This document shows, in pieces, positions 13,370 to 60,735 of a DNA stretch of 64,000 bases (positions within the stretch are counted from its first letter, which is position 1; each line of letters starts with the position of its first letter). The stretch is taken from the NCBI GenBank assembly GCA_963796455.1, contig CAWCLO010000003.1:128001-192000 (forward strand). The letters run 5' to 3'. Below the pieces are notes generated by a model. The model searched no databases. It saw only the letters and a list, made by a program, of their open reading frames with translations, and was not told where the DNA came from. Position numbers and translations under genes: made by a program. This stretch comes from Candidatus Sulfomarinibacteraceae bacterium (GTDB lineage: Bacteria > Acidobacteriota > Thermoanaerobaculia > Thermoanaerobaculales > Sulfomarinibacteraceae).

Positions 13370-13870
13370 CGAGAGGGAAAGGGGGAATCGCACAGTCGCT
13401 CGATTCTCGATTCTCGATACTAGATGCTGGACGCTGGATGCTGGATGCTGGATGCTGGACTACTCTTGTCCAAGACGGTGTCTCGGAGAGCTTTCAGGGA
13501 CAGCGACGGGGAACAGGAGTCAGCGGCAGCGACCAGCGGCTGGGACAGTGAACAGCACCCATAGCTTCGGGGCTCCGACCTTGGTGGTGCGGCCGTCGCG
13601 GCCGCACGGTGTGCAGGCGAGACGCCTACACCACAACGACTGTTCCTTCCGTTGAACAACCCGGAGGTGGCCACGCCGTCACTGCACCTGGCCGCTGCCG
13701 CTGAACACTGATCGCGGTTCCCTGTCGCTGATCTCTGCCGCTGACGCTGGATACTGTCGCTGCCGCTGTGATTCCCGTTCATGTTTCCGAAAGGAGGAAG
13801 GGAAAACAACTCCCTTGCCGGCCGAAGGCTCAATCCCCCTTCTCCCTTTCCCCCCCTTCTCCCTTTCTCC
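13370..13870. mobile_element. Family 1 repeat-bounded element, gene-less copy A with a REP doublet in the core, nested in GCTGGAT heptamer and AAAGGGRG octamer layers
   Basis: End motif ACTCTTGTCCAAGACGGTGTCTC at ~13462; CAGCGA-rich left arm and TCGCTG-rich right arm; retains TTGAACAACCCGGAGGTGGCCAC (13652); REP doublet 13584-13633. Confidence 0.7.
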
Positions 13871-13922
13871 TCGCCCCAACACTCGAAGCGGCAATGTGGC
13901 ATTTCGGGGGTACGATATCCCC

Positions 13923-14816
13923 ATGACCCGCGGAATTGACGACCACATGCACGAATTCCTCGCCCATCTGTCGATCGAGAGGAATCTCAGCCCGCGAACC
14001 ATCGAGTCCTACCGCCGCGATCTCCGCCAATTCAGCAAATGGCTCGCAGATCACGGCACGGAGCTGGCCGCGGTCGAACGTGCCACTCTCCGCGACTACC
14101 TCGGTTCACGACGGGATGCCGGTCTTTCGGCACGATCATCGGCACGCGCCCTGTCGGCTCTGCGCAGCTTTTTCAAATACCTCGTACTGACCGAGGACTT
14201 GAGCTCCGACCCCACCACCAACCTGCGATCTCCGAGCCTGTGGCAGACCGTCCCGCACGCCCTCTCCTCGGACGAGATCGAGACGCTCCTGGCCGCGCCG
14301 AATACCAAAAGTACCCTCGGCATGCGCGATCGGGCGATGCTGGAAACCTTGTATGCAACCGGTCTCAGGGTGTCGGAACTGGTCGGCCTCACCGTGGACC
14401 GGGTTCGCCTCGATCCCGGTTTTGTTCGAATCATCGGTAAAGGCCGCAAGGAACGCCTGGTGCCGCTCGGGGAATCGGCGGTTTCCTGGATCGACCGTTA
14501 TCAGGTGGGGGCGCGACCCGAATTGAATCGGAAGCGCCTCCCGGTTCTTTTCTTGAACCACCGCGGCGGCGGGCTCACCCGGCAGGGTTTCTGGAAAATC
14601 CTGCGCGGCCACGCGATCACCGCGGGGATCTCGTCGAATGTGAGCCCCCACGTGGTCCGCCATTCATTCGCGACCCACCTGGTGGAAAACGGCGCCGATC
14701 TGCGCGCCGTCCAGATGATGCTCGGACACTCGTCACTCACCACCACCGAGATCTACACCCATGTCGCGCGCGAACGGCTTCGTCGTCTTTACGACGAGAA
14801 GCATCCGCGGGCATAG
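13923..14816 (+). CDS. xerD: Site-specific tyrosine recombinase XerD
   Basis: RDRAMLETLYATGLRVSEL, GKGRKERLVP, SPHVVRHSFATHL, LGHSSLTTTEIYTHV, C-terminal HPRA. Confidence 0.95.
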   Translation: MTRGIDDHMHEFLAHLSIERNLSPRTIESYRRDLRQFSKWLADHGTELAAVERATLRDYLGSRRDAGLSARSSARALSALRSFFKYLVLTEDLSSDPTTNLRSPSLWQTVPHALSSDEIETLLAAPNTKSTLGMRDRAMLETLYATGLRVSELVGLTVDRVRLDPGFVRIIGKGRKERLVPLGESAVSWIDRYQVGARPELNRKRLPVLFLNHRGGGLTRQGFWKILRGHAITAGISSNVSPHVVRHSFATHLVENGADLRAVQMMLGHSSLTTTEIYTHVARERLRRLYDEKHPRA

Positions 14817-14831
14817 CGGGAGGTCGGAAGC

Positions 14832-15575
14832 ATGGTTTTCGGATTTCAGGTTTTCCCCAGAATCTTTGGAACGGACTGCGACGGTTGGAAATCCGAAATC
14901 CGAAATCCGAAATCCGAATTCGCGTTCCTCATGATCTTGATCCTTGGCATGGCTTTTTTCCCCACTTCGGCTGACGCCAAGCTGGTTATCTTCACCGACG
15001 GCAGGGTCCTCAAGGTGGCCGACGCCCGGCTCGACGGGGCGGAACTCGTGCTCGAGTTGCGCGGTGGTGGAAGCCTCAGCGTTTCCGCGGTCCGGGTCGA
15101 TCGGGTGATCGCGGACGAGGTCGATGACAAATCGATCGACCCCTTCGAAGATCCCTCATGCCGTCACGGCTGGCGCGATGACCCCCTTCCGCCGGGTCTC
15201 CCCTTTCGCGATTCCATGACGAGAGCCGCACGGGCCGCCGGTCTCAACCCATATCTGGTGGCCGCGGTGGTCAGAACCGAATCAGCCTTCGATCCCCTCG
15301 CCGTGTCAAAAGCGGGTGCAGCGGGTCTCATGCAATTGATGCCCGCTGCAGCAGCCGATCGTGAGGTCGAGGATGTCTTTGATCCCGAAGACAACCTCCG
15401 CGGCGGCGCCGAACATCTCCGCTTGATGATCGATCGTTTCGAGTCGCTCACCCTCGCCCTGGCCGCGTACAACGCCGGTGCCACGACGGTTGAACGTTAT
15501 GGCGATATTCCTCCCTATCGCGAGACGAGGAACTACGTGCGGAAGGTGCTGGCTCTCTTCTGTCCCGAGGGATAA
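14832..15575 (+). CDS. Lytic transglycosylase (SLT domain)
   Basis: AVVRTESAF, SKAGAAGLMQLMP, ALAAYNAG, PPYRETRNYV; SD GGGAGGT before ATG 14832 (alternative start 14931). Confidence 0.9.
   Translation: MVFGFQVFPRIFGTDCDGWKSEIRNPKSEFAFLMILILGMAFFPTSADAKLVIFTDGRVLKVADARLDGAELVLELRGGGSLSVSAVRVDRVIADEVDDKSIDPFEDPSCRHGWRDDPLPPGLPFRDSMTRAARAAGLNPYLVAAVVRTESAFDPLAVSKAGAAGLMQLMPAAAADREVEDVFDPEDNLRGGAEHLRLMIDRFESLTLALAAYNAGATTVERYGDIPPYRETRNYVRKVLALFCPEG
14835..14921. repeat. Inverted heptamer cassette inside the 5' end of the SLT gene
   Basis: GTTTTCGGATTTCAGGTTTTCC ... GGAAATCCGAAATCCGAAATCCGAAATCCGAATTC. Confidence 0.8.
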
Positions 15576-15584
15576 AAAAGCGAG

Positions 15585-16150
15585 CCTGGATGCTGGATCA
15601 CTTTTGTCCAAGACAGAGTCTCGGATTGCGTACAGGGACAGCGACAGAATTCAGCGCCAGCGAACAGTCACCAGCGGCAGTGTTCAGTCATCAGCGTCAG
15701 CGATCAGCGACCGGGGCAGGGACTGAACTCGCCGAACGGATGGCCTGATCGGCTATCGACTTCAGCGGAGCGGGAACTCTCATCACGAGTTTGATCGCGA
15801 TGCCTGCTGCTTCGAGGGCTTTCGAGTGGGCAATGAGACTGGTGTTCGTGGCGGCTGAGGACATGGTCACCTCCGGGTCGTTCATGCCCATACCCACAAG
15901 CCGGTGTGGTGGCCGATGTCAAGGATGCCCTGCACCCTGCCTGTCCTTGACATCGGCCGCCCACCGGCTACCCCTTCTGTTGAACGACCCGGAGGTGGCC
16001 ACTTCGTCGCCTGCTCCTGACCGCTGCGCTCTCTCCGTCGCTGAACACTGACCGCTGTCCCTGTTCGCTGATTCCTGTCGCTGTCGCTGGACACTGTCGC
16101 TGTCGCTAGAATTCGGACACGGACGCGGACACGCGCACGGGGCAACCGCA
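15585..16150 (-). mobile_element. Family 1 element copy B carrying a truncated four-helix-bundle gene
   Basis: End motif ACTTTTGTCCAAGACAGAGTCTC at ~15600; CAGCGA/TCGCTG arms; leader hairpin 15864-16001. Confidence 0.75.
15716..15864 (-). pseudogene. Four-helix-bundle protein, 3'-truncated (first ~50 codons)
   Basis: MSSAATNTSLIAHSKALEAAGIAIKLVMRVPAPLKSIADQAIRSASSVPA matches the full copies, then runs into the repeat arm. Confidence 0.85.
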
Positions 16151-16207
16151 ATTCAGGCACTGGAAATAGGATTCGTGGCTGGTACACTTCGCCCGAGGAG
16201 ACGGACC

Positions 16208-16663
16208 ATGAAAAATCGAAACGCGGCGCTCGTGCTTTGCGTGATGTTCGCAACTCTGACCCTTGTATCCGGCTGCGGTGAGAAAGAGACGCCCGAACAG
16301 CGCGTCGAACGAATGCGCTACAACCACGAGATCTACCCGGTTGCCGCCAAAACGCTCTATGACGCCGACGGCCAGCCAACTCTCCTGGTCGATCTTCAGG
16401 TCGCGAATCAGGGTGGCGAGCCGCTGGCGAACCTGACGGTCCTGGTCACGATTCTGGGGCCTGACGGCTCGCAGAAACACCAACAACGGGTGACACTCGA
16501 CATGGAGGGCGTCCGGCCTGGAATCGGAGCCCGGGTTTCGGCTGCGCTACAAGGTGTGGAGCTGCTCGACGACGACGAGGTGACCGTCGAGCTCGAACAC
16601 AGCCTTTCCCCCGAAGTCCTTCGTGGGCTGCCGGAATTTGCGGAGGTGTCGGGTTCTAGTTGA
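16208..16663 (+). CDS. Putative lipoprotein
   Basis: GAGGAG SD; signal peptide with lipobox LVSG-C. Confidence 0.8.
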   Translation: MKNRNAALVLCVMFATLTLVSGCGEKETPEQRVERMRYNHEIYPVAAKTLYDADGQPTLLVDLQVANQGGEPLANLTVLVTILGPDGSQKHQQRVTLDMEGVRPGIGARVSAALQGVELLDDDEVTVELEHSLSPEVLRGLPEFAEVSGSS

Positions 16664-16937
16664 TCGGCCCTGAGGGGAGTTCGGAAAGGCCGAAGCGTTC
16701 CATCAGAATGCTCCGCATACAGGGAAGGACGTCGGTTTCAAACACTGCCACCGCGTCCGGTGCGAGCCGCTCAACGGCCTTGTGGGTCGCCTCGATCAGA
16801 CGGAGGCCTTCGCAAAGCCGGAGATCGGGATCTTCCCGCAGCGTATTACAGGTAACATCGAGCATGAGCTCGCACCGTGCATCGACAAGCGATCGGAATT
16901 CGTCAGTGATCATTCTCAAAGCGTCCATCTCCGTCAA
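16656..16937 (-). CDS. Hypothetical protein (~90 aa, helical)
   Basis: Fills the gap between the lipoprotein gene and suhB with protein-like composition; start uncertain (16928 or 16937). Confidence 0.6.
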   Translation of the reverse strand: MTEMDALRMITDEFRSLVDARCELMLDVTCNTLREDPDLRLCEGLRLIEATHKAVERLAPDAVAVFETDVLPCMRSILMERFGLSELPSGPIN

Positions 16938-16939
16938 CC

Positions 16940-17764
16940 ATGGAGCCCAGCGTGCTATTTCAAGATCCTGAATCCTTCTTAAACGAGATCCAACGCATCG
17001 CCGAGCTCGGCGCCGACCAATTGATGGTCCACTGGCGCAACCTCACGCCGGACCAGATCAGCCACAAAGCACGAAACGATCTGGTCTCAGCCGCCGATTT
17101 CGCTTCGGAGCAGGCGATCGTCAACGCCATCCAAAAACAATTTCCCGATCACAATATTCTCTCCGAAGAAGCGGGTTGGAACGCCAGTTCGGAAAACGGC
17201 CCGACATGGATCATCGATCCTCTCGACGGAACCACCAATTTCGTTCAGGGCATCCCTCAGTTCGCGGTCTCCGTCGGCGTGGCGGTCAACGGTCGGGTCG
17301 ATTTCGGTGTGATCATCGATCCGTGTAAAAAAGACACTTTTGCGGCGGCCCGCGGTCTCGGTTTCCACTGGAATGGAAAGCGCTGCACGGTCAGCAGCCG
17401 CGCCGGTCTCGAAGGGGCGGTTCTCGCAACCGGCTTTCCATTCAAGGCACACCGGCTCCTCGACCCCTATCTGGATATTTTCCGAGACGTATTTCTCCGT
17501 TGCAAGGCAATCCGGCGCCCCGGTGCGGCCGCCCTTGACCTCGCCTATACGGCCTGCGGGCTCTTTGACGGCTTCTTCGAATTCAAGCTCTCGGCCTGGG
17601 ACATCGCCGCCGGCGCGATCATGATCGAGGAGGCCGGTGGCATCATCAGCGATATGGCGGTCGGCGGCGATTTCATGGCGAGCGGTGATGTTGTGTGCGG
17701 TTCTCCCGGGGTATATCGCCAACTGCACGAGGTCATCAGCACCCACGTCGAGAAGTGGCAGTAA
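16940..17764 (+). CDS. suhB: Inositol monophosphatase family protein
   Basis: WIIDPLDGTTNFVQG, RRPGAAALDL, WDIAAG. Confidence 0.93.
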   Translation: MEPSVLFQDPESFLNEIQRIAELGADQLMVHWRNLTPDQISHKARNDLVSAADFASEQAIVNAIQKQFPDHNILSEEAGWNASSENGPTWIIDPLDGTTNFVQGIPQFAVSVGVAVNGRVDFGVIIDPCKKDTFAAARGLGFHWNGKRCTVSSRAGLEGAVLATGFPFKAHRLLDPYLDIFRDVFLRCKAIRRPGAAALDLAYTACGLFDGFFEFKLSAWDIAAGAIMIEEAGGIISDMAVGGDFMASGDVVCGSPGVYRQLHEVISTHVEKWQ

Positions 17765-17872
17765 CCCAAGAAACCCTTCGGACATTGGCCGTTCTCGAGC
17801 TCTGCACCTCCTGGATTCGAGCAATATCGAGAAGCCCGGACAAAAGGTGTTGTGCATCACTGTTAAAGTATT

Positions 17873-18394
17873 GTGAATGCTGCGCGCCAAGCTATACTTC
17901 AGCCCGTGACCGAAGCCAAACTCAGCCACGGAGCCATGCGCGACAAAGTCCAAGAGGCTATTTCCTGGACGCGCAAAAGCGAATACGATCACGCCATCGG
18001 CGTTTTCGAGGACTACCTGGCGATCCTGGCATCCGATGGTGATCTCCAGAGCAAACGCTTTGCGGCGGCCGCATTCTCCTACTATGGCCTCTGTATGGCC
18101 ATGGTCCGGCATAAGTACGCTGACGCCATCAAGTACTGCAACATATCGCTCAAAGCCAACTTCATGGAGCCGGAACACCGCATCAACCTGGCCCTCGTCT
18201 ACCTCGAGCGCGACGACCGCAAGAACGCTGTCGAAAACCTCGAGGCCGGCCTCCGCTTGGCGCCCTCGAACAAGCGCATCCACTCGATCTTCGCCGATAT
18301 CGGGCGCCGCAAAGCGGTCACCTTCACCTTCCTGTCCCGAAGGAATCCCATCAACGTCTGGTTCGGTAAACTGCGCGAACCAAAACCCGAGTGA
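17873..18394 (+). CDS. TPR-containing protein
   Basis: TPR-like helices (FSYYGLCMA, INLALVYL, LEAGLRLAP); start uncertain. Confidence 0.75.
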   Translation: MNAARQAILQPVTEAKLSHGAMRDKVQEAISWTRKSEYDHAIGVFEDYLAILASDGDLQSKRFAAAAFSYYGLCMAMVRHKYADAIKYCNISLKANFMEPEHRINLALVYLERDDRKNAVENLEAGLRLAPSNKRIHSIFADIGRRKAVTFTFLSRRNPINVWFGKLREPKPE

Positions 18395-18446
18395 ACTCGA
18401 GTTGAGACCTTGATCGCAAGATCAACCGAGAACCTACAATTGCCTC

Positions 18447-18475
18447 TTGCCAGCAGGTCGATCGGGGTTTATCCT
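18447..18475 (+). promoter_or_regulatory. Sigma70-type promoter of nifJ
   Basis: TTGCCA (18447-52), 17-nt spacer, TATCCT (18470-75). Confidence 0.65.
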
Positions 18476-18480
18476 ACGCA

Positions 18481-18498
18481 TTGTGAATTTGTTCACGT
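18481..18498. promoter_or_regulatory. Rex-like operator
   Basis: TTGTGAA-TTTG-TTCACGT versus the Rex consensus TTGTGAA-N4-TTCACAA, over the predicted transcription start. Confidence 0.6.
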
Positions 18499-18569
18499 AA
18501 TCTGAGATTGCGTGTCCGCTGCACCGAGTGATCTTAAGCCGCCCGCGAGACATTCCCCGGAGGTTATCC

Positions 18570-22148: not shown

Positions 22149-22159
22149 GGGAGGGAGCT

Positions 22160-23170: not shown

Positions 23171-23198
23171 AGGGGCGGCTTCGGCCGCCCCTTTTTTG
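23171..23198 (+). terminator. Rho-independent terminator
   Basis: GGGGCGGC-TTCG-GCCGCCCC followed by a T-run. Confidence 0.9.
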
Positions 23199-23998
23199 AT
23201 ACTCGATGCTGGATCACTCTTGTCCAAGACAGAGTCTCAGACAGCGACCGGGGACAGGGACGGGTAACGGCGGACAGCGTCAGCGAACGGTTGTCAGGGT
23301 CAGCGATCAGCTATCAAAAGCAGCGACCGGTAACGGCGCTCACATTTTCGGGTTCAAGAGCCGCCAGGTCATCGCTCGGACCTGATCGAACGCCTTCATC
23401 GCGTCAAGGGCTGCTGTTCGGCTGATTGCCCCGGCGTGGGCGAGGAGCATTAAGTGGCTGTCGACCTCTTTGGCCGAGGCGTAGGCGATTCTCCAGTGGT
23501 TCAACCGGTCTCTACCGAATCGGCCGTGCCCTTCGGCCATGTTCGCAGGGACCGAACTTACCGACCGGATCACCTGATCGGCTATGGACTTCAGTGGAGC
23601 TGGAACCCTCATCACAAGCTTGATCGCGATTCCTGCTGCTTCGAGGGCTTTCGAGTGGGCAACGAGGTTGGTGTTCGGGACGGCGTTGGACATGGTCACC
23701 TCCGGGTCGTTCATGCCCATACCCACAAGCCGGTGTGGCGGCCGATGTCAAGGATGCCCTGCACCCTGCCTGTCCTTGACATCGGCTGCCCACCGGCTAT
23801 CCCTTCTGATGAACGACCCGGGGGTGAGCACTACGCCGCAGGAACTCCAGACTACTGCCGCTGCTCTCCGTCGCTGAACACTGATCGCTGCCCCTGATCA
23901 CTGATTGCTGACCGCTGTTCCCTGTCCCTGTCGCTGCCACTGCAATTCCGGCACAGGCGCGGGGGAACCGTGAATCGAGCACCTAGTATTGAATATCC
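23198..23998 (-). mobile_element. Family 1 element copy C carrying an intact four-helix-bundle gene
   Basis: End motif ACTCTTGTCCAAGACAGAGTCTC at ~23216; repeat arms; leader hairpin 23693-23830; right end CTGCAATTCCGGCAC. Confidence 0.75.
23340..23693 (-). CDS. Four-helix-bundle protein (23S rRNA IVP / Avd-like family), 117 aa
   Basis: ADQVIRSVSSVPANMAEGHGR...RIAYASAKEVDSHL family-type signature; SD GGAGGTG just upstream of the ATG. Confidence 0.9.
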   Translation of the reverse strand: MSNAVPNTNLVAHSKALEAAGIAIKLVMRVPAPLKSIADQVIRSVSSVPANMAEGHGRFGRDRLNHWRIAYASAKEVDSHLMLLAHAGAISRTAALDAMKAFDQVRAMTWRLLNPKM

Positions 23999-25638: not shown

Positions 25639-28251
25639 TCAGAGCCTCGAGCGGACCTCGGCCAGGATGGCTTCAAAAGCGGGATCACCGAGCAACAGAT
25701 CGAAATCGTCATCCTCGAAAATCCGTTGGTTGGCCCAACCGACATCGAGGGCGCGATGCAGGGTGGAGACGGCGCCGTCACCGTCACCACTGAGAGCCTG
25801 AATACAGGCCTGGTCGTAGAGGTTCCAACCAGCAGAGGGATGGTTGGATCCAAATATCTCGTTACGAATGGCAAGCGCCCGTCGGTACCATTGCAGCGCC
25901 TCGGCGTACTCCTGCTGCTGGTAGTAGTGAAATCCGAACAACTCGATGGTCCGAACCACACCCAGGTGTTTTGATCCGTGGGCCTTCTCGGCGATTTGTA
26001 GCGTCCGGTCGAGTGCCGCGCGGGCACCCTCCGAATCCCCCTGGTTGACCAAGCACAACGCATACGGCCCCAGGGTCCAGATGAGGTCGGGGTGGTCGGG
26101 ACCCAGGGAGCGCTCTCCGATCGCGAGAGCGCGCGCGAATTTCTGATTGGCTTCTGCAAGATTCCGTTTTCGTCGATCGAGTTCCGCCAAAAGGGTGAGT
26201 GGCGACATCAAATTGGGGTGATCGGGGCCGAGGGCTCGTTCCTGGATCTCGAGCGAGCGTTCAAGCTGGGTTCGTGCCTGATCGAGACGGATCGTTTCCA
26301 TATAACAACGACCGAGGGCAGCGTGGAGCCCGCCGACCGTTGGATGGTCGGGACCGTATCTCCCCTCATAGAGCTCCAAAGATCTCACGATGATCTGTTC
26401 TGCGGCGTCGTAGTCCGCCAAATCCATCAGCATGCCGGCGTACGGCCAGGCAGTGTGAACGACTATCGGGTCGTTCTCCATGCCTGCTTCGCGGAGAATG
26501 TCCATCGAGCGCTCGAAGGCCGTACGGGCAGAGCCATATTCACCGATACGTAGACAGGCGCTCCCAACGAAACCGAGACTCGAAGCCACCGCCCAGTGGT
26601 CGGGGCCCAGGGATTGTTCGTAGACAGTCGCGGCCCGTTCGAAGAGGGAACGCGCCGCCTCGTAATCTGCAGCCCAGTATTCGAGCCAACCGAGAGAAAC
26701 GCAACTTTCCGCCACCTCCGAGTGGGTGGGGCCCAGGTGCTCCTCACGGAGGGAAAGTGCGTCCTCGAGCAGAGGCCTGGCCTCTTCGTACCGGCCCATG
26801 TTTCGGTATGCATTGCCGACAGTCCCCAGCAATTGCGCTCGCATCAACGGTTGGTCTGTGAGTTCGTCCTGAATCCGCTCAACACCCCGGTCGAGCATCG
26901 CGGTGGTCGACGGGACCTGTCCCAGCTGGAACTCAGGATCGAAATCCGCAAACATTCCAACCAGCATTTCCGAGACCTTGCTTGCCGTCTCCGCCTCGCG
27001 CTGCGCTCTCACCAGACCGAAGGAGGTACCGATGACCCCCGCCACCAGGGCGAATGCAACGACAGCGCCGGCCGCCACCCCGACGCGATGGCGGCTGACG
27101 AATTTGCGCAGTCGGTACCACGAGCTCGGGGGGCTCGCCTCCACCGGTTCGTCACGCAGATACCGGCCGACGTCGGCCGCCAAACTGGATGGCGAGGCGT
27201 AACGACGCGTGCGGTCTTTCTCCAGGGCTTTCATGACGATCCAATCGAGGTCGCCACGGAGGGTCCGGGCCAGACCCTGGATGTCGGTTCGACGTCGCTC
27301 CGCCGCCAACTGTGAAGCGTTTCCGAGGCTCGTGACGCGGGTGCTCGGTCGCGGCGGTTCTTCTTCACGGATGCGCCGCCGCATCTCGTCAAAACCGGCC
27401 GTTCGGAGTTCTTCACCATCAAATGGCTGGCTCCCGGCGAGCAACTCGTAGAGGACGACGCCCAGCGAATAGACATCCGATCGGGTGTCCACATCGAGGC
27501 TCGTGAGATCGGCCTGCTCAGGGCTCATGTACTCCGGAGTCCCGATCCATTGCCCGAGTTCGGTGAAGAGTGTCCTCTCGGTGAGCCGCTGCGAAGTCGC
27601 CTTGGCGACGCCGAAATCAATGATTTTCGGAACCGCTCGGCCATCATCGACCGCCACCAGAATGTTCGAGGGCTTGATGTCTCGGTGGATCACTCCCTTC
27701 TGGTGGGCGTGCTGTACTCCATCACAGACCTGACAAAAAAGATCCAGCCGCCGTCGCATGTCGAGCCGATTGGTATCGCAGAAGCTCGTGATGGGCACGC
27801 CCTTGACGAACTCCATGGCAAAGAACGGACGGCCCTCATCGGAGGACCCCGCCTCGAAGGCCTTGGCGATATTCGGATGGTTCATCAGAACCAGCGCTTG
27901 GCGTTCCGACTCGAATCGGGCCAGTACCTCCTTGGTGTCCATCCCCCACTTGATGAGCTTGAGGGCGACCCGCCGCCTGACCGGTTGCTGTTGCTCGGCC
28001 TCCCAGACTTCTCCCATTCCGCCTTCACCGATTTTTTGCAGCAAGCGGTACGATCCAAGGATCGCCGGTGGAATCGGATCGGTCTCGGAAAAACTCGAGT
28101 CGTCAACGGCCAGCAATGCCTCGATTTCTTCCCTGAGAGCGTCATCTCCGGAGCACATCTCTTCGAGCCGGGCCGAGCGATCCTCGGTAGGGTGCTCACA
28201 CAACTCGAGGAACATCTTCTTGACCAGGGCGTGTCGTTCAGAGGAAGTCAC
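25639..28251 (-). CDS. Hanks-type Ser/Thr kinase with TM segment and TPR repeats
   Basis: IGEGGMGEVW, VALK, HRDIKPSN, DFG, GTPEYMSPEQ; repeated LGPDHP TPRs. Confidence 0.95.
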   Translation of the reverse strand: MTSSERHALVKKMFLELCEHPTEDRSARLEEMCSGDDALREEIEALLAVDDSSFSETDPIPPAILGSYRLLQKIGEGGMGEVWEAEQQQPVRRRVALKLIKWGMDTKEVLARFESERQALVLMNHPNIAKAFEAGSSDEGRPFFAMEFVKGVPITSFCDTNRLDMRRRLDLFCQVCDGVQHAHQKGVIHRDIKPSNILVAVDDGRAVPKIIDFGVAKATSQRLTERTLFTELGQWIGTPEYMSPEQADLTSLDVDTRSDVYSLGVVLYELLAGSQPFDGEELRTAGFDEMRRRIREEEPPRPSTRVTSLGNASQLAAERRRTDIQGLARTLRGDLDWIVMKALEKDRTRRYASPSSLAADVGRYLRDEPVEASPPSSWYRLRKFVSRHRVGVAAGAVVAFALVAGVIGTSFGLVRAQREAETASKVSEMLVGMFADFDPEFQLGQVPSTTAMLDRGVERIQDELTDQPLMRAQLLGTVGNAYRNMGRYEEARPLLEDALSLREEHLGPTHSEVAESCVSLGWLEYWAADYEAARSLFERAATVYEQSLGPDHWAVASSLGFVGSACLRIGEYGSARTAFERSMDILREAGMENDPIVVHTAWPYAGMLMDLADYDAAEQIIVRSLELYEGRYGPDHPTVGGLHAALGRCYMETIRLDQARTQLERSLEIQERALGPDHPNLMSPLTLLAELDRRKRNLAEANQKFARALAIGERSLGPDHPDLIWTLGPYALCLVNQGDSEGARAALDRTLQIAEKAHGSKHLGVVRTIELFGFHYYQQQEYAEALQWYRRALAIRNEIFGSNHPSAGWNLYDQACIQALSGDGDGAVSTLHRALDVGWANQRIFEDDDFDLLLGDPAFEAILAEVRSRL

Positions 28252-38489: not shown

Positions 38490-39165
38490 CTGGAACCACT
38501 CTTGTCCAAGACAGAGTCTCAGACAGCGTTCAGGGACAGCGACGGCGAACAGTAGTCAGGGGCAGCGTTCAGTCATCAGCGGCAGCGAACAGCGGCCGGG
38601 GCAGCGATAGCACCAGTGATCAGCTCTCACTTCGTCGGGTTCAGCAAACGCCAGGTCATCGCACGGACCTGATCGAATGCGTTCATCGCTTCACTGGCTC
38701 CGTTCGGGCTGATCGCCCCGGCGTGGGCGAGGAGCTCCAAGTGGCTGTCGACCTCTTTCGCCGAAGCGTAGGCGATCCTCCAGTCGTTCAACCGGTCTCT
38801 ACCGAATCGACCGTACCCTTCTGCCAGGTTCGCAGGGACTGAATTTGCCGACCGGATTACCTGATCGGCAATGAACTTCAGCGGAGCTGGAACCCTCATT
38901 ACAAGCTTGATCGCGATGCCTGCTGCTTCGAGGGCTTTCGCGTGGGCAACGAGGTTGGTGTGCTTGGCGGCGTTGGCCATGGTCACCTCCGGGTCGTTCA
39001 TGCCCAGTCCCACAAGCCGGTGTGGCCACGCCGCCACTGCACCTGATCGCTGGCCCTGAACACTGATTGCTGCCCCCTGTCCCTGTTCGCTGTTGCCTGT
39101 CGCTGTCGCTGGTAGCTGACGCGGATTCCTGTCGCTGATCGCAGATGCTGTCCGCCGCCCCTGAT
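38490..39165 (-). mobile_element. Family 1 element copy D carrying an intact four-helix-bundle gene, leader hairpin deleted
   Basis: End motif ACTCTTGTCCAAGACAGAGTCTC at ~38498; repeat arms; leader joins CCGGTGTGG directly to CCACGCCG. Confidence 0.75.
38627..38980 (-). CDS. Four-helix-bundle protein (23S rRNA IVP / Avd-like family), 117 aa
   Basis: ADQVIRSANSVPANLAEGYGR...RIAYASAKEVDSHL; about 20 of 117 residues differ from the 23340 copy. Confidence 0.9.
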   Translation of the reverse strand: MANAAKHTNLVAHAKALEAAGIAIKLVMRVPAPLKFIADQVIRSANSVPANLAEGYGRFGRDRLNDWRIAYASAKEVDSHLELLAHAGAISPNGASEAMNAFDQVRAMTWRLLNPTK

Positions 39166-46607: not shown

Positions 46608-46950
46608 GCAGAATTCAGGGACAGCGACAGGGAACGGCAGACAGCGGCGGCGATCAGTGTGCAGCGGCAGAGATCAGGGGCAGCAATCAGGTGCAGTGAC
46701 GGCGTGGTCACCTCCGGGTCGTTCAACAGAAGGAACAGCCGTTGTGGTGTAGGCGTCTCGCCTGCACACCGTGCGGCCGAGACGGCCGCACCACAAATGC
46801 CGGAGCCCCGAAGATATGACTGCTGTTCACTGTCCCGGCCGCTGATCGCTGACCCTGATGACTGAACGCTGCCGCTGACTCCTGTTCGCTGTCGCTGAAT
46901 TCTGTTGCTGGCGCTGAACTCTGACGCTGTCGTCCCTGTCCCGGACAGCA
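46608..46950. mobile_element. Family 1 element, gene-less copy E (inverted relative to copy A)
   Basis: TGGTCACCTCCGGGTCGTTCAACAGAAGG at 46705; REP doublet 46744-46794 homologous to 13584-13633; repeat arms. Confidence 0.7.
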
Positions 46951-47002
46951 GTGATGGTCGGTGTTCGATCGGGCCCCATAACCCGAACGACCAAACGGGT
47001 CC

Positions 47003-51498: not shown

Positions 51499-51519
51499 GA
51501 ATTTCCTTGATCTGTTGAG

Positions 51520-52422: not shown

Positions 52423-52453
52423 GCTCACCTCCACTCCCATTCGAACGGGATTA

Positions 52454-53876: not shown

Positions 53877-54267
53877 ATGTACGACTCGGAAGCCCAAACT
53901 CGGGGGGTGGTGGTGGCTGTCAAGTCAAGCTATGTTCCCGAACGATCACAGCCGCTGCAACAGCGGTGGTTTTTTTCTTTACAGGATTCGGATTTCCAAC
54001 AACGGCCCGGACCCGGTTCAGCTTCTCAATCGCCACTGGGTCATCACCGACGCCAACGGAAATGTCGAAGAAGTGCGCGGTCCCGGAGTGATCGGTGAAC
54101 AACCCCAATTGGCACCCGGCGAGTCCTTTGAATACACCTCCTTCTGTCCCCTTTCGACCCCATTTGGAACCATGGAGGGCAGCTACGAGATGGTCACCGA
54201 GCAGGGTGAGCATTTTCTTGCCAATATCGGACTCTTCACCCTCAGTCAACCGATGGCGGTGAATTAA
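53877..54267 (+). CDS. apaG: ApaG protein, split by a +1 frameshift in a T7 run
   Basis: N-part MYDSEAQTRG...SYVPERS...WFF and C-part YRIRISN...RHWVITD...GPGVIGEQP...MEGSY lie in different frames. Confidence 0.85.
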
Positions 54268-54270
54268 CGA

Positions 54271-55185
54271 CTACACGCTCTCGGCGAGCACCGTCTCGAC
54301 ATCGTCTGGGTCGATCCATTCGATCGCGATGCCCCGCTTCTCCATGCCCCGGAACCAGGTCTGTTGCCGCTTGGCAAAACGGCCGATCGCGCGCTCGAGA
54401 TCGGCCTGCATGCGGTCGCGGCTCTTTTTTCCAAGCAGATAGGCTGCGACTTCACGGTATTCGAGACCGAGATCGTGGAGGCGCTTCGGCTCGAGACCGC
54501 TATCGAGCAGCGTCCGGACTTCATCGATGAGCCCTTCATCGAGACGAGCGACCAGACGGCGCCGAATTCTTGCCTGCAGCGTCTGCCGCTCGATAGCGAA
54601 GCCGAAGACCGAATAGGAGATCTCGAGCCCGGGCCCACTGCTCGACTCCACCGGGCCCTGTCGTCTGGCTTCGGCAATCTCGAGCTCACGAATCAACCTG
54701 CGGCGGCTCGCGAAATCGATCACCTCCGGGTCGGCCATCTCGCGACGGGCCATCAAAACCAGTTCATCGGTCGCCAGCCTGTCCAGGCGCTGCCGAAGCG
54801 AAGCGTTCTGCGGCACATCGACGATTCGATAGTCCCGGACCACCGATTCGACGTAGAGCCCGGTCCCGCCAACCATCACCAGGGGAATCGCCCCCGTCGC
54901 GAAGCCCTCTCGTTCGGAGAAAGAACGAAAAACCGAATAACAATCTTTTTGGAAACGAAAAAGCGTATAGACCTCGTCGGGTTCGGCGATATCGATGAGG
55001 TGGTATGGAACCGGAGGTGTAACCTGCGAGTACTCGTCGAGATCCTTGCCGGTGCCGATATCGAGACCGCGATAAACCTGACGCGAGTCGGCGGATACGA
55101 TTTCCGAACCCAGACGATGGGCCACCTCGACGCCAAGCCGGGTCTTGCCGCTCGCGGTTGGCCCGACAATCACAATGACTCTCAT
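54271..55185 (-). CDS. miaA: tRNA dimethylallyltransferase
   Basis: GPTASGKT, SADSRQVYRGLDIGTGK, VGGTGLY, FAKRQQTWFR. Confidence 0.95.
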   Translation of the reverse strand: MRVIVIVGPTASGKTRLGVEVAHRLGSEIVSADSRQVYRGLDIGTGKDLDEYSQVTPPVPYHLIDIAEPDEVYTLFRFQKDCYSVFRSFSEREGFATGAIPLVMVGGTGLYVESVVRDYRIVDVPQNASLRQRLDRLATDELVLMARREMADPEVIDFASRRRLIRELEIAEARRQGPVESSSGPGLEISYSVFGFAIERQTLQARIRRRLVARLDEGLIDEVRTLLDSGLEPKRLHDLGLEYREVAAYLLGKKSRDRMQADLERAIGRFAKRQQTWFRGMEKRGIAIEWIDPDDVETVLAESV

Positions 55186-56375
55186 TGCTCGAACTGTCCC
55201 CGGAGTCGTTCGTCGAGACGCTCCACCTCCGGCCGGTCCATGCCTGCCAGAAGTACCCCGTAACGCAGGGGACGGCCAGCGTCGAACCCAAGGGGCGAGG
55301 TGAGCAGGACGCCACACCGCCGGAGCGGATCGAAGGCATCGTCGCCCAAAGCCACGACCAGGTCATCGAACGACGAGGGCAAACGCAGCTTTCGAGCTGA
55401 AAAGAGACGCCAGTAGACCACCCTGTCCCGCCCCCAATCACGCCACAGGCTCTTTCCGGGGGCAGACATACAGCCGCGCGCGTTGATGTCGACAAGTGCG
55501 CGCAGCCGGGGCAGACCATCGTCGTCCCACACAAAGCTATCGATACAAACCGGACCTTTGTACCCGTCGCGCGCAAGCCGACGAGCAGCCGTTTTCACGG
55601 CTGTCCCGATCTTCTCGCGCCACGGCTCCACCGTTCTCGAATCGAGATCAAAGATCGCCCCGATAAAGGCGCCGTCGGCGGTATTGACGACCTCGTGAAT
55701 CTGCAATCCGTGAATCGATCCATCACCCGACACCTCGAAGACCGAGGCGAGATCGAGCACGCGCGGACGGAATCGTTCAAGCACGACACACGGGTTCTCG
55801 ACCAGCATTCCTTCGATGACGCGTCGATCGGCCTCGCTCAATGGGAGAGATCGGAGTCTGCGATTCCCCAATCCGGAATTCCCGTGCTCCGATTTGACCA
55901 TCCACTCGACCCCGGATGAAGGCTGCCCGGCCAGGAAATCCACCACTGATTCGACGGAGGTGAAAACACCGAGGACCTCTTTTCCATCACCGATCGCAGT
56001 CTCGACCTCAGCGGCAAAGCGACGTCCATTCACTCGGCGCACGACATCGAGAAGGGGATGATCAACCGGCTCCGCGTAGCGACGATTGAGCTCGGATGCC
56101 TGCAGATTCCAGCCGAAGGGCCTGAGAGTGGCATGCCGCCGGATCGATGGCGCAACACTGACCTTCGGATGCTCGATGCCGCAATCTTTGAAATAGCGGG
56201 CGAAATCTCGATCCACCTCCCGATCGAGGAGGATCGAGTCTCCGCCTCGAGCCAGGAGCAGAAAATGCCACGGCAATTCGGCGGCCTGACGCTCTCGCGC
56301 TCGCCCGAAGGGTCTGACGCCACCCCGACGCAGACTGAGGTCAAAATCCGCATTGATGAAATGCTCCCGGCCCAT
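55182..56375 (-). CDS. Uncharacterised ATP-grasp-like protein
   Basis: WMVKSEHGNSGLG, VLERF, GYKGPVCIDSF, DINAR resemble ATP-grasp motifs; ATGA overlap with miaA. Confidence 0.65.
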   Translation of the reverse strand: MGREHFINADFDLSLRRGGVRPFGRARERQAAELPWHFLLLARGGDSILLDREVDRDFARYFKDCGIEHPKVSVAPSIRRHATLRPFGWNLQASELNRRYAEPVDHPLLDVVRRVNGRRFAAEVETAIGDGKEVLGVFTSVESVVDFLAGQPSSGVEWMVKSEHGNSGLGNRRLRSLPLSEADRRVIEGMLVENPCVVLERFRPRVLDLASVFEVSGDGSIHGLQIHEVVNTADGAFIGAIFDLDSRTVEPWREKIGTAVKTAARRLARDGYKGPVCIDSFVWDDDGLPRLRALVDINARGCMSAPGKSLWRDWGRDRVVYWRLFSARKLRLPSSFDDLVVALGDDAFDPLRRCGVLLTSPLGFDAGRPLRYGVLLAGMDRPEVERLDERLRGQFEQ

Positions 56376-56539
56376 CGGCCCCAGAGTAACCCAGGTCGAC
56401 CTGACGCAATGTACAATGACGCCAGCAGCAACAATGGAATCAAGGACCTCGAAAACATGGCATGAAGCTGTGGTTGGGCGGTGCGCCCAGGTCGCATTGT
56501 TTGTTGAGCGGATCGTTTCAGCGTCATCGGGAGGGCATT

Positions 56540-59104
56540 TTGATCGGCAGCACGGTCTCTCATTACCGCATCCTGGAACGACTGGGCGGTGGCGGCATGG
56601 GCATCGTTTACAAGGCCCAGGACACCCGCCTCGATCGTGCCGTTGCGCTCAAGTTTCTGCCCGCGGAATGGGTTCAGGAACAACTTCTTCGAGAACGCTT
56701 CAAGCGCGAGGCACGGGCGGCCTCCTCCCTCGATCACCCCAACATCTGCACCATTTTCGACATCGGAGAAACACCGGAAGGCCAACTCTTCATCGCCATG
56801 GCGCACTGTTCCGGCGAGACCCTGAAACACCGGATCCTGCGTGGGCCGCTCGCGGTCGAAGACGCGGTGGAGATAACGATCCAGATCGCCGACGGCCTCG
56901 AGAACGCCCACGAGGCGGGCATCGTCCACCGCGACATCAAACCGGCCAACCTGCTTTTTGACGACCGCAAACAAATCAAAATCGTCGATTTCGGCCTCGC
57001 AAAGCTCGCCGGAGAGGCCGCCGTCACCCTCGAAGGCTCGGTGGTAGGCACACCGGCCTATATGTCACCCGAGCAGGCCACCGGTGAGACGCTCGACGGC
57101 CGCAGCGATATCTGGGCCGTGGGCGCGGTGCTGTACGAGATGCTGACCGGCCGCCGGGCCTTTGCCGCCGGACACGACCGCGCCATCCTGCTCGCCATCA
57201 CCAGCACCGACCCGACGCCGATCGACGATCTTCGTCCTGAAGTCCCCGGCGAGTTGCTGCGAATCGTCGGCAGGTGCCTCGAACGCGAGCCTGCAGAACG
57301 TTATCAGCACGCACGCCATCTGGTGGCCGAACTGAAGCGCTTCCGGGGCGAATCCACCCCCGCAGAAATCGTGACTCAAACGATGCCGTCCTCGATGGTC
57401 GTGCGCCGCCCGAGAAAATTGCGCCGCTGGCTGCCGGCCATCGCAGGGGTCGCGATCCTCGCTGCCGGGGTCTTTCTCTACCCCTTGCTGATTCGTCCTG
57501 CAAAACAACACCTTGTTGTCTTGCCCTTCAATTGTCCGGCTGCTGACGTGCAGTCCCAGATCATGTGCGTCGGATTGCTCGACACAGTGACTGCAAAACT
57601 CTCCGAGTTGAGGAGGTTCCAAGACTCACTCTCGGTCGTTCCGGCTAGCGAGATCCGCAGCCGCCGGGTCAACAGCGCCGATCTGGCGCACAAGATATTC
57701 GGCATCGATCTGGTGATCTCGGGGAGCGTCCTTGCAGAAGAAGAGACCCTCCGCATCCCGATCGAACTGGTTGATGCAATGCGCTTGCGTCAATTGCGCT
57801 CTCGCACCATCACCACCGAGAAGACGGCGGATTTCGTGCTCCAGGACCGTGTCGCGGAGGTGATCGAAGAGATGCTCGACATCGAACTCCGCGATCATGA
57901 GCGCAATGCCATGCAGATCGGCGGCACCCGCAACGCGGAAGCGGCGGAGCTCTTTCTCGAGGCGCGCGGGCGATCCAGCGACAACCCGTCGGAGAACCAG
58001 CTCTCTCAGGCAATCCGCCTCTACCGCGAGGCACTCGACCTCGACCCGGATTATGCGGAAGCCATGATCCAGCTGGCGCACTCGTGTCATCAACGTTATC
58101 TGTCGAGCCGAGATCCGATCTGGCTCGAACACGGTACGACTTATGCCCGGCGAGCGGTCGATGTGGCGCCGGATCTGCCGGCTGCGCACGCCGCCGCCGG
58201 ACATCTGGCTCTGGAATCGGGAGATCCCTCCTTTGCCATCGATCACCTTCAGCGCGCGGTCGCCCTCGATCCGCTGGATCTCGTGGCCTCGATGCTTCTC
58301 GCCACGGCTTATCGAGCCACCGGAGACGAAGAAAATGCCCAGGCGGTGGTGGATCGCGCCATCCGTACCGGTCCCGAGGACTGGCGCACCTTCTATGCAT
58401 TCGGCAAGTTTTTCTACAAGCGCCACGACCTCGCCCAGGCCGCAGAATACTTTCGCCGGGTCGTGGAATTGCTGCCCGATTTCAGCATCGGTCACACCGC
58501 CCTGGGCAGCACGCTCTTTTATCTCGGTGACCGCGCCGGCGCCCGCGAGCATCTCGAGCGGGCCTGTGCCATCGGCTGCGGTTATGAGGGCCTGAACAAT
58601 CTCGCGACCCTCGAGTTCTACGACGGCCGATCGGCCGCGGCCGCGGATCTCTACCGGCGCGCCCTCGATCTCGACGATCGCGACTACAGCGTCTGGAACA
58701 ACCTCGCCGAGGCCACGGCAGGCCTCGAACCAGCGCAAACGGAACGCGTTCAGGCGGCCTACCGGCGGGCCGCAGAGCTGGCGGAAAAAGTGCTCGAAGA
58801 GCGCGAAGACGATGTGACGGTGTTGGTGGACCTGGCTTCCTTCAATGCACATCTCGGGGACGAGGCGGAGGCTCGTCGCCTCCTCGAGCGGGTCGCCTCG
58901 TTGGACGTCAAAGACCCCAACATCATGGTTGCCCTCGCCGACGTATTCGAAAGGCTCGGCGAGCGCAACCTGGCGATGGATTGGATCAAACGCGCGGTCG
59001 AGGCGGGATACCCGATCCAGATCATCCTGGACTATGCCGGTTTTGCCGAGTTGAAGACCGACCGGCGATTTGAAGAATTGGTCGAAGCCGCCACGATCGA
59101 GTAG
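56540..59104 (+). CDS. Ser/Thr kinase with TM segment, TolB-N-like region and TPRs
   Basis: LGGGGMGIVYKA, HRDIKPAN, DFGLAK, GTPAYMSPEQ, LVVLPF, TPRs; TTG start after GGGAGG. Confidence 0.93.
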   Translation: MIGSTVSHYRILERLGGGGMGIVYKAQDTRLDRAVALKFLPAEWVQEQLLRERFKREARAASSLDHPNICTIFDIGETPEGQLFIAMAHCSGETLKHRILRGPLAVEDAVEITIQIADGLENAHEAGIVHRDIKPANLLFDDRKQIKIVDFGLAKLAGEAAVTLEGSVVGTPAYMSPEQATGETLDGRSDIWAVGAVLYEMLTGRRAFAAGHDRAILLAITSTDPTPIDDLRPEVPGELLRIVGRCLEREPAERYQHARHLVAELKRFRGESTPAEIVTQTMPSSMVVRRPRKLRRWLPAIAGVAILAAGVFLYPLLIRPAKQHLVVLPFNCPAADVQSQIMCVGLLDTVTAKLSELRRFQDSLSVVPASEIRSRRVNSADLAHKIFGIDLVISGSVLAEEETLRIPIELVDAMRLRQLRSRTITTEKTADFVLQDRVAEVIEEMLDIELRDHERNAMQIGGTRNAEAAELFLEARGRSSDNPSENQLSQAIRLYREALDLDPDYAEAMIQLAHSCHQRYLSSRDPIWLEHGTTYARRAVDVAPDLPAAHAAAGHLALESGDPSFAIDHLQRAVALDPLDLVASMLLATAYRATGDEENAQAVVDRAIRTGPEDWRTFYAFGKFFYKRHDLAQAAEYFRRVVELLPDFSIGHTALGSTLFYLGDRAGAREHLERACAIGCGYEGLNNLATLEFYDGRSAAAADLYRRALDLDDRDYSVWNNLAEATAGLEPAQTERVQAAYRRAAELAEKVLEEREDDVTVLVDLASFNAHLGDEAEARRLLERVASLDVKDPNIMVALADVFERLGERNLAMDWIKRAVEAGYPIQIILDYAGFAELKTDRRFEELVEAATIE

Positions 59105-59135
59105 GCGACTCGACAACAAACTGGACGGAGGACAA

Positions 59136-59534
59136 ATGGACTATAAGGACGAAAACCACATCACCATCGACGTGAATCCCGAGAAAAAACCAATGGTCGG
59201 AAAAATCGAGGTCGATGCGGTCAGCCGGACCGCCAGCGTCACGGCGGAAGGCGGCGACGTGGTGGTCTTCCTACCGGTGCGTGGAGGGCTCGTGGAACGC
59301 TCGACCAACGAGAACGCGAAATTCGCGAACCGGGAGAAGATCGGCACCTTCTATGGATTCGCATTCGATGTGGAGGCCGGGCAGACCGCGCAATTCAGGG
59401 TCGAGGTCGAAAACACCGAGGAGCTGATCGTTCACTATCTGGTCAGGTGTCATTCCGGTGACACCGGCGGCTACTGGGCGAAAGGCGACGCTTCTCCGCC
59501 ACGGATGATCATCCCGCCTGTTCCACCAGGCTGA
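59136..59534 (+). CDS. Hypothetical beta-rich protein
   Basis: SD GGAGG; 132 aa, fills the gap after the kinase. Confidence 0.65.
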   Translation: MDYKDENHITIDVNPEKKPMVGKIEVDAVSRTASVTAEGGDVVVFLPVRGGLVERSTNENAKFANREKIGTFYGFAFDVEAGQTAQFRVEVENTEELIVHYLVRCHSGDTGGYWAKGDASPPRMIIPPVPPG

Positions 59535-59536
59535 GT

Positions 59537-60157
59537 TCAATCGAACTGAATTTGCAGGGCCCGCTGAACGGCGGGTCTCTGGCCGATGGCATCGAGCCAC
59601 CTCGCCGTGGCCGGGTAGTCATCGATATCGATGCTGAATCGTGCGTGGTTCTTCATCCACGGGTAACAGGCGATGTCGGCTATGGAGTATTCGCCCGCAA
59701 GATACCGCCGGTTTCGAAGCTGGCTCTCGACCACGCCATAGAGGCGCTCGGCTTCGGTGATGAATCGTTCCACCGCAAAGGGCACCGGCTCCGGCGCCCG
59801 ATGAAGGAAATAGCCCGCCTGGCCGAGGAAGGGGCCGATACCGCCCACCTGGAACATCAGCCAGGACAGAGTCTGCCACCTCCCCGCCGGATCAGACGGC
59901 AGCAACATGCCGCTTTTCTCGGCGAGATAGAGCAGGATGGCGCCCGACTCGAAGATCGCGATCGGATTGCCGTCCGGGCCCGCCGGGTCCACGATGGCCG
60001 GTATCTTTCCATTTGGGTTGATGGTCAGGTACCTGGGTGATTTCTGTTCGCCCTCGTCGAGGTTGATTGCGTGGAGGCGGTATTCAATCCCGGTTTCTTC
60101 CAGCATGATGTGGATCTTGTGCCCATTGGGCGTGGACCAGGTGTAGAGGTCGATCAT
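59537..60157 (-). CDS. Glutathione S-transferase (YfcG-like)
   Basis: TPNG, NPNGKIPAI, FESGAIL, YSIADIA. Confidence 0.93.
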   Translation of the reverse strand: MIDLYTWSTPNGHKIHIMLEETGIEYRLHAINLDEGEQKSPRYLTINPNGKIPAIVDPAGPDGNPIAIFESGAILLYLAEKSGMLLPSDPAGRWQTLSWLMFQVGGIGPFLGQAGYFLHRAPEPVPFAVERFITEAERLYGVVESQLRNRRYLAGEYSIADIACYPWMKNHARFSIDIDDYPATARWLDAIGQRPAVQRALQIQFD

Positions 60158-60204
60158 ATATTCTCCTCGTCTGCTGCAACACTCTACCTTTGCTCTTCTA
60201 CTCC

Positions 60205-60735
60205 CGCTCGATCGATGCTGGATGCTCGATGCTCGATCAATCTTTTCCAAGACAGCGTTTTCAACAGCGTTCAGGGACAGCGGCGGGGATCAGCAGACAG
60301 CGTCAGCGAACAGGAGTCAGCTATCAGCGGCAGTGAGCAGCGACAGGGGACAGCGACAGGGAACAGCGTTCAGCCATCAGTGTTCAGGGGCAGCGGTCAG
60401 GAGTACAGGCGGCGATGGAGGTCTTCGCTCACGTCCGTGCCATCCCCCGGCGGCTGTTGAACCCGAAGAACCGAGTGCTGTTTGCTGCCGCTGGTGGCTG
60501 AACGCTGACGCTGACTACTGTTCGCTGTCACTGATTCCTGTTCGCCGACCCTGATTACCGTCGCTGCCGCTGCAATTCGGGCACGGACACGGGCCACCGC
60601 AAACCGGATATGCCAAAAACCAACCCGTAGACCTCGTGTTGTTAAACGGACAACTTCAAATGAAGATTTTTCTTGGACAGAAGTGGATTCCGATGGCGAT
60701 AGCGATAGAAGCGATAGCGATAGCGATAGCGAACA
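60205..60735. mobile_element. Family 1 element, gene-less copy F
   Basis: Degenerate end motif TCTTTTCCAAGACAGCG (60241) and an inverted motif TCTTGGACAGAAGTG (60671); long CAGCGA/TCGCTG arms; (GCGATA)n at 60697-60732. Confidence 0.65.

Follow-up and report, generated by a model that had tools for sequence, protein, structure and literature searches.

The stretch analysed here, referred to as the window, comprises 64,000 nucleotides of a Candidatus Sulfomarinibacteraceae genome (G000 in our numbering; 5.02 Mb, 90.5% complete), namely positions 128001–192000 of contig C3. It holds six cassettes, all of them intergenic and at the positions given by an initial annotation made from the letters alone, in which CAG-rich arms face each other in inverted orientation and some of which carry a gene for a 117-amino acid (aa) four-helix-bundle protein. 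These cassettes belong, as judged from their sequence, to a non-autonomous mobile insertion cassette (MIC) derived from an insertion sequence (IS) of the IS4 family. The features of the window are as follows:

13461–13780, minus strand: copy 1, gene-less derivative; IS4-type end 13461–13476, both arms, second end missing
~13566, ~13575–13640 and 13653–13673: inner parts of copy 1, respectively a remnant of the gene 3' end, an insert resembling repetitive extragenic palindromes (REP) and the upstream half-stem of the leader
15599–16150, minus strand: copy 2; IS4-type end 15599–15614, arm, 5' part of the gene 15700–15864, second arm, second end missing
15862–16001: complete leader of copy 2, with a −35-like box at 15947–15952 on the plus strand
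23171–23192: terminator directly before copy 3
23215–23975, minus strand: copy 3; gene and leader intact, both arms present, a single IS4-type end at 23215–23230
23340–23693, minus strand: copy 3 four-helix-bundle gene, 117 aa (PF05635 and TIGR02436)
23691–23830, plus strand (the template strand of the gene): copy 3 leader hairpin, folded as DNA
23712–23714, minus strand: copy 3 conserved upstream ATG, in frame, 21 nt before the main start
23776–23781, plus strand: copy 3 −35-like hexamer TTGACA, in the 3' arm of the template-strand hairpin
23798–23803, plus strand: copy 3 −10-like TA, hexamer TATCCC lacking −7T, 16 nt past the −35 box and bordering the internal loop
38497–39165, minus strand: copy 4; IS4-type end 38497–38512, arm, intact 117-aa gene 38627–38980, 3' half only of the leader, second arm present, second end missing
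46608–46953, plus strand: copy 5, gene-less; REP-like insert of copy 1, inverted core, surviving end 46938–46953
60238–60685, minus strand: copy 6, without gene, 448 bp long; IS4-type ends on both sides, subterminal segment 60594–60648, remnant of the gene 3' end at ~60460, target duplication not intact

The end motif reported in the initial annotation was present in five cassettes (at 13461, 15599, 23215, 38497 and 60238). The core sequence reported there was also present in five, the 60205 copy being the one that lacks it. The two intact open reading frames (ORFs) do differ at 20 residues, and all three gene copies of the window are antisense to both neighbouring genes. Words typical of the arms reach densities of up to 21 per 80 nt, against 4–7 in 30/30 Markov resamples of the window, a lenient control given that the words were chosen from the cassettes themselves. 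The CAG-rich arms are real, but they are not the pure hexamer repeats first described, being built from mixed 6- and 7-nt CAG-units (408 versus 425 spacings). The cassettes also run ~90–130 bp past the second arm, beyond the limits noted earlier, to a second terminal repeat which is complete in the window only in the 60238–60685 copy. The 38490 copy retains an intact ORF and is missing the 5' half of its leader; the core of the 46608 copy has the opposite orientation to the end that survives there. An Rfam search of the window returned 0 matches.

Counting copies across the genome, one of the checks proposed with the initial annotation, revealed a multicopy family of ~225 arm-bearing loci. An arm-word scan found 398 dense segments forming 163 inward pairs and 9 outward neighbours, a module scan found 225 arm-bearing clusters totalling 112.6 kb, and tblastn found 108 gene segments, 59 of them of at least 110 aa, with copies dispersed over 9/10 contigs. 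Clusters reach 6–8 per 100 kb on C1, C3, C7 and C8, and element-poor regions were noted on C2, C6 and C9 (0–1.7 clusters per 100 kb) and at 400–800 kb of C4. Read along the gene strand, the element opens with a terminal repeat and a subterminal segment of ~90 bp; these are followed by a short run of hexamers, an arm built of 6/7-nt CAG-units and the leader of ~140 nt, after which come the gene, the reverse arm and the second terminal repeat. Full elements measure ~820–890 bp and the 117-aa ORF is their sole gene, with no transposase inside. When anchored upstream arms were compared, 40/40 were distinct (median identity 73%). Seven or eight partial copies have one common internal deletion (core ~50 to ~310), so that defective forms also spread or are converted.

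Gene matches ranged from 0 to 52 per genome in a draw of 30 relatives and from 0 to 98 within the genus, where some genomes at least 95% complete have 0–1. In a tree with 83 copies from relatives (the fetched part of the listed relative matches), all 59 copies of this genome form one clade with support 0.95. The same leader was found at no fewer than 85 loci in named records, mostly titled Ca. Sulfomarinibacteraceae, Thermoanaerobaculia, Holophagae or Acidobacteriota, with a gene start downstream in 45. A covariance-model search of 150 other genomes of the phylum, scoring 20 candidates per genome, gave no match (0/150).

The end motif proved to be one IS4-type terminal inverted repeat. We examined 93 inward end pairs for the target duplications that the initial annotation had suggested looking for, and a 9-bp duplication was exact in 20 and had at most one mismatch in 39, even with ~10 spurious very short or long pairs kept in. 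Shuffled controls gave means of 2.4 exact and 7.9 near matches (maxima 7 and 14), and every other length from 4 to 13 was exact in at most 1 of the 93 pairs. Most insertions lie in arrays of heptamers (type ATGC(A/T)GG); several near-match duplications lie outside such arrays. In relative G006 the 9-bp duplication is exact in 16/31. These duplications rule out that the motif is one more nested hairpin without duplications, a candidate we had considered. In relative G017 the same ends bound a 1411-bp IS4 (locus L127, 1016–2426) whose transposase scores 251 bits against NF033592 (cut-off 115), with the YREK signature (Y-2-R-3-E-6-K) visible in the ORF; this cognate transposase was found in 1/25 genus genomes. 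Both the 9-bp duplication and the CA-ends fit the published IS4-family table (PMC2266710).

The ends are exchangeable, and the sequences indicate that vehicle and passenger are separable layers. In six relatives the core lies between a second end type, GG(C/T)TCATCCGG, whose two-ended copies show an 8-bp duplication that is exact in 5/12 and has at most one mismatch in 10/12 (counts taken with no shuffle control); this end type flanks ISL3 transposases in 2/8 loci. IS4-type ends are lacking in relatives G004 and G014, where gene matches number 45 and 13, respectively.

Of the 83 relative copies, 45 could be mapped to syntenic junctions, although some of the intervals span more than one junction. 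The cassette is absent here at 23 and present at 22 of these, against a background of 224 cassette-holding spacers among the 2516 of the genome. At the 22 common junctions the orientation is the same in 10, opposite in 11 and both in 1; occupied junctions of which half are in opposite orientation point to repeated independent insertion into hot spots. Divergence from the relatives is too great for empty sites to be resolved at base level, and in four metagenome contig sets no joint skipping a cassette appeared among the joints listed. Within the window, the smc–lplA junction holds the gene in 1/6 syntenic relatives and other repeats in 5, and the junction after a dihydroorotate-dehydrogenase-family gene holds it in 1/21, with IS4 ends around other cargo in 3. 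The proposal of one spreading element, with gene-carrying and gene-less members and a catalytic partner acting in trans, is supported by the 9-bp duplications, the IS4 of the relative, the single clade and the 23/45 junctions lacking a cassette here.

Antisense orientation to host genes, suggested by the window, did not hold as a rule. Of the 59 copies, all between predicted protein genes, 19 are antisense-tandem, 7 sense-tandem, 24 convergent and 9 divergent, compared with 1059 tandem, 309 convergent and 487 divergent background spacers (these counts rest on a crude gene caller of our own). The antisense pattern in the window is partly chance, and the element prefers gene 3' ends.

Both intact ORFs exceed the PF05635 and TIGR02436 cut-offs in the profile search proposed earlier; the gene at 23340–23693 scores 52 bits (cut-off 33.8) and 55.5 bits (cut-off 24), respectively. 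There are 73 TIGR02436 matches in the genome. The S23p/four-helix-bundle family is very common, and to our knowledge it has no established function outside diversity-generating retroelements (DGRs). Among the 59 copies, which were picked by unbroken alignment (about six frameshifted copies being excluded), 58 frames are of 117 aa and mean dS is 0.35 and dN 0.049. The resulting dN/dS of 0.14 indicates that the gene is under purifying selection. Alleles common to several copies have an omega of 0.12–0.18 and no stops, and singletons an omega of 0.60–0.76. The singleton changes at four-fold sites were also noted for a low transition ratio (6 transitions versus 15 transversions), possibly because they are imports from diverged donors. 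Linkage between sites (r2) falls from 0.16 at 1–5 nt to 0.02–0.04 beyond 30 nt, a decay reached in 0/1000 permutations, and only 11/56 internal branches of the gene tree are well supported, which together indicate that the copies exchange short patches. The structure model (pLDDT 92) matches entries 2GSC and 2RLD with a template modelling (TM) score of ~0.82 and Avd (4DWL) with TM 0.78 and an E-value of 0.1. By analogy with Avd and the five-chain entries 2GSC/2RLD the protein is probably pentameric and may, like Avd, bind nucleic acid; its net charge is +2 to +10.

The leader has a median identity of 95.5%, which exceeds the conservation of synonymous sites. The plus-strand leader of copy 3 folds as DNA with −55.1 kcal/mol (z −10.1), the lower stem containing the Shine-Dalgarno sequence and the start codon; the sense RNA reaches −88.1 kcal/mol (z −7.7), with GGAGG and AUG buried. 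The template-strand fold has a lower stem of ~22 bp and an upper stem, with an internal loop between them that mostly measures 11–12 by 12–15 nt. Sigma70 recognises a paired T-12 and a flipped A-11 at the upstream fork where a bubble of ~13 nt opens; −7T is required mainly for melting, and a pyrimidine-purine step is favoured at −1/+1. In an alignment of 40 leaders, to which 15 genomes contributed up to four each, CTA occupies −13 to −11 in 40/40, TA being invariant and its A the first unpaired base; the spacer measures 16 or 17 in 40/40, with freely covarying bases, and TTGAC is found in 38/40. −7T is present in only 2/40, while T is found at −10, −9, −8 and −6 in 14–18/40. Covariation across genomes, with changes on both sides, is seen in 17/45 pairs of the leader fold, and 97% of cells are paired. 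TA at that spacing is absent from the sense strand (0/58 and 0/57 leaders), the stem ends at the T/A step in 47/54 and 41/49 folded leaders, and among mismatches of the upper stem wobbles are more numerous on the template than on the sense strand (19 versus 5), alongside 23 others. A pattern scan found TA kept in 30/34 distinct leaders, including 12/16 of those least like the alignment. Across the genome, −7T is absent from 78/78 element-type sites and present in 146/463 other TTGACN-N16–18-TA sites. A consensus promoter scan, which requires −7T, gave 0 hits. On the opposite side of the loop, a terminal pyrimidine is followed by the in-frame ATG in 58/59 copies here and 60/63 in relatives, and the upstream ATG of copy 3 (23712–23714) would be a candidate transcript 5' end. 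Taken together, this geometry is probably that of a sigma70 promoter on the template strand which is gated by single-stranded DNA (ssDNA).

A second leader type (L047, L053, L092 and L125; G006, G017 and G036) has a ~110-nt structured insert at the position of the conserved ATG, which in G006 accompanies loss of the −35 stem and for which no Rfam match was found. Rfam searches of six relative loci gave one sub-threshold Acido-Lenti-1 match. In L216, from a record titled Methylomirabilota, the leader is a near-perfect palindrome without bubble and with a gene-like start on both sides. A count of GNA triloops (14/39, by a crude finder and split over both strands) was not used.

At the level of sequence, the analysis establishes insertion of the DDE type for a cassette without transposase, ends that can be exchanged, a protein under selection, copies that recombine with one another and a fold that is conserved. 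We propose, as an account that we hold to be somewhat better than even, that the element has two layers, an IS4 vehicle and a conserved core with a fold-back promoter and a protein acting on its own copy. As its sequence shows, the vehicle keeps both IS4 terminal repeats and the 3' subterminal segment and has lost the transposase; it would be pasted in trans, mostly into ATGC(A/T)GG-type heptamer arrays, with 9-bp duplication. The passenger core, which is conserved, consists of the CAG-unit arms, the ~140-nt hairpin and the Avd/S23p-like gene, and rides ISL3 ends in relatives. In duplex DNA the gene would lack a sigma70-type promoter, and read-through RNA would bury the ribosome site. The template strand could become single-stranded when DNA is taken up or transferred, or at gaps in replication or repair; ComEC and DprA occur here but also in 10–11/14 control genomes, and so are not evidence for uptake. 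The single-stranded template would then fold, as in Frpo promoters, into a −35 element, a 16–17-bp spacer, a T-12:A-11 fork and a pre-melted bubble, from which RNA polymerase would make a short-leader mRNA with a free ribosome site. Transcription of the gene gated in this way is, on the evidence of the leaders, fairly likely. The basic, probably pentameric protein would finally bind the single-stranded arms of its own copy and aid survival or recombination. Such action on its own copy is a more tentative step, somewhat less likely than not; it would explain both the selection on spreading copies and the mosaic haplotypes.

Several observations weigh against this account. No cognate IS4 transposase was found in this genome, 90.5% complete as it is, and around the G017 IS4 itself no duplication is intact. 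G034 has 49 exact IS4-type end matches, mostly ~390-bp elements with other cargo, and only 3 gene matches, so that movement of the ends does not depend on the protein. The copies are mostly old (median of ~22 of 345 nt to the nearest neighbour), pairing of the arms is generic and not copy-specific (own-partner mean rank 0.47), and a hand tally of the 59 copies shows no replication-strand bias (33 versus 26). As for the promoter, the leader sequences are related, so that the counts given above are not independent; −7T is less depleted in the pattern-scan set (6/34); the distance from ATG to −12 is 12 nt in 33/61 relative copies and 14 nt in 54/59 here; and 12/34 fetched G006 copies have the alternative leader without the −35 upper stem, yet are spreading and intact. 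Finally, template switching can create compensatory changes in near-perfect palindromes without selection.

The alternative that survives best, although we regard it as unlikely, keeps the same IS4/ISL3 vehicle and has the hairpin act as sense-strand RNA, either as a stem like that of rRNA intervening sequences which hides the ribosome site or as one cut by RNase III, the gene being for the most part silent cargo whose uniformity is maintained through gene conversion by donors under selection elsewhere. The stable RNA fold that buries GGAGG and AUG would be expected under this explanation, and free recombination among copies, nearer-neutral singleton changes and leaders without the −35 stem are compatible with it; moreover, the S23p ORF of Coxiella is apparently not made in vivo according to one account (PMC4990558). 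Nevertheless, it makes no prediction of an invariant TTGAC, 16–17-nt spacer and TA on the opposite strand, nor of −7T depletion, and the 19:5 excess of wobbles in favour of the antisense strand is equally unpredicted. Furthermore, unbiased conversion would leave amino acid changes unpurged, yet the common alleles have low omega and no stops.

We consider it improbable that TTGACA-N16/17-TA is a weak ordinary duplex promoter firing outward, for neighbours or antisense RNA, with the hairpin as a by-product. In duplex DNA the motif does point outward, and tandem contexts favour the antisense orientation 19:7, but such a promoter would not need the stem to end at the T/A step, is not found by the consensus scan, and does not explain why −7T is missing in 78/78 element-type sites when 146/463 others have it; in addition, 24/59 copies lie between convergent genes.

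There is similarly little to recommend a domesticated multigene family beneficial to the host (a stress or defence protein dosed by copy number), for which transposition would be historical. The strong purifying selection with few stops would suit such a family, as would cassettes in both genomes at 22/45 junctions compared with 224/2516 spacers. However, the number of matches varies from 0 to 98 per genus genome, including the nearly empty ones of at least 95% completeness, the copies form genome-specific clades, and the opposite orientation at 11/22 common junctions points to independent hot-spot insertions.

Retroelement-like spread by the Avd-like protein and a reverse transcriptase (RT) in trans, as in DGRs, is very improbable: it would profit from the likeness to Avd, which is described as binding a non-coding RNA segment and enabling bRT (PMC6182149), and from cDNA being the strand with the promoter-like fold, but RVT_1 gave no match in this genome or in G004 (45 gene matches), RT is present in G001, G011 and G012 (0–1 matches), adenine-biased variation was not seen among gene copies, and DDE-type ends with duplications explain the insertions. 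Co-occurrence with RT, proposed earlier as a check, showed no correlation with copy number across the 25 genus genomes, and the RT/HUH-type partner once envisaged gives way to a DDE transposase as mover.

Regarding other repeats of the genome, two window copies have a REP-like double hairpin in place of the gene (13575–13640 and 46740–46800), and 55/84 genome matches to its motif lie inside cassettes. Two Y1/RAYT-like genes with similar flanking palindromes are found at C4:210157 and C1:952748; RAYT/Y1 proteins (6 matches) were considered as movers, and they explain the REP-like insert and are not needed for the ends. Four of the TIGR02436 matches are other subfamilies, lying between their own inverted short-repeat arms (C4:1278079, C1:983116, C9:2705 and C10:733016), as do three GxxExxY loci (C1:453963, 750134 and 748392). 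The repeat units of these seven loci also fill many spacers, and no −35 hairpin was found there in the 260 nt folded. In the window, a XerC/D-type tyrosine recombinase gene (13815–14816), treated as a host gene, adjoins copy 1, and two genes encode Ser/Thr kinase-TPR proteins (25639–28251 and 56462–59104).

For the 117-aa gene there is now a defined cassette of high copy number, whose ends can be identified and whose transposase family can be named, together with a signal of selection and a precise hypothesis for the promoter, and each step is open to in vitro tests with short DNAs and the 13-kDa protein. We found no description of this cassette in the literature searched, which covered a minority of subscription papers. 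It is conceivable, though rather doubtful, that the core is an undescribed kind of selfish unit, in which a pre-melted fold-back promoter lets the gene sense when its own DNA is single-stranded, an Avd-like ring binds its own arms and protects or recombines the strand in uptake or repair, and the whole hitch-hikes on available IS ends, with ORFs of 23S intervening sequences and repeat-flanked four-helix genes from many bacteria as relatives or relics.

Among known systems, MICs are described as elements in which a passenger gene replaces the transposase and which are moved in trans (PMC3913671). MIC231 of Bacillus cereus, the mic elements and the IS4-family miniature inverted-repeat transposable elements, known as MITEs, likewise have inverted IS ends, a target duplication and no internal transposase. 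Common ends, an IS4 DDE transposase in a relative and a 9-bp duplication, within the 8–13 bp (about one helix turn) usual for the family, place our cassettes among them. In contrast to these elements, there are here ~60 gene copies and ~225 loci per genome, one passenger on two IS families, repeat arms, a fold-back leader and a passenger of no assigned function under selection in every spreading copy. The abundant 7-mers near gene ends described for Xanthomonas and Nostoc (PMC4692102) differ in their units, and the 7-mers here are the preferred insertion target.

The cassette belongs neither with the DGRs nor with the rRNA intervening sequences. It resembles Avd in its four-helix fold (TM 0.78 to 4DWL) and positive net charge, but identity is 9% and there is no RT, no template/variable repeat (TR/VR) context and no adenine mutagenesis. 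ORF-bearing 23S rRNA intervening sequences (S23p; Coxiella, Leptospira), for which a mobile origin is described as proposed and unproven (PMC4990558), likewise hold the same protein family inside a self-complementary element, whereas the cassettes are intergenic, have IS ends and duplications, and conserve the ORF where the others decay.

The closest counterpart of the leader is the Frpo/ssi promoter of the F and ColIb-P9 leading regions, where an ssDNA stem-loop is reported to rebuild the −35 and −10 elements (PMC9849209, PMC11541004; Masai and Arai 1997 as cited there). Both have a stable, conserved template-strand stem-loop upstream of a gene, with a −35 element in the stem at sigma70 spacing. 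The cassettes differ in being chromosomal, multicopy and carried in a transposon, with no oriT or known single-strand stage, and in having an internal loop of ~11–15 nt instead of the canonical −10 (TAnnnT), the comparison being one of geometry and not of sequence. With −7T in only 2/40, the leader may work like Frpo and is not classed as a member. If the proposed control is true, a chromosomal, transposon-borne promoter that works only on ssDNA would extend Frpo-type control beyond plasmid leading regions.

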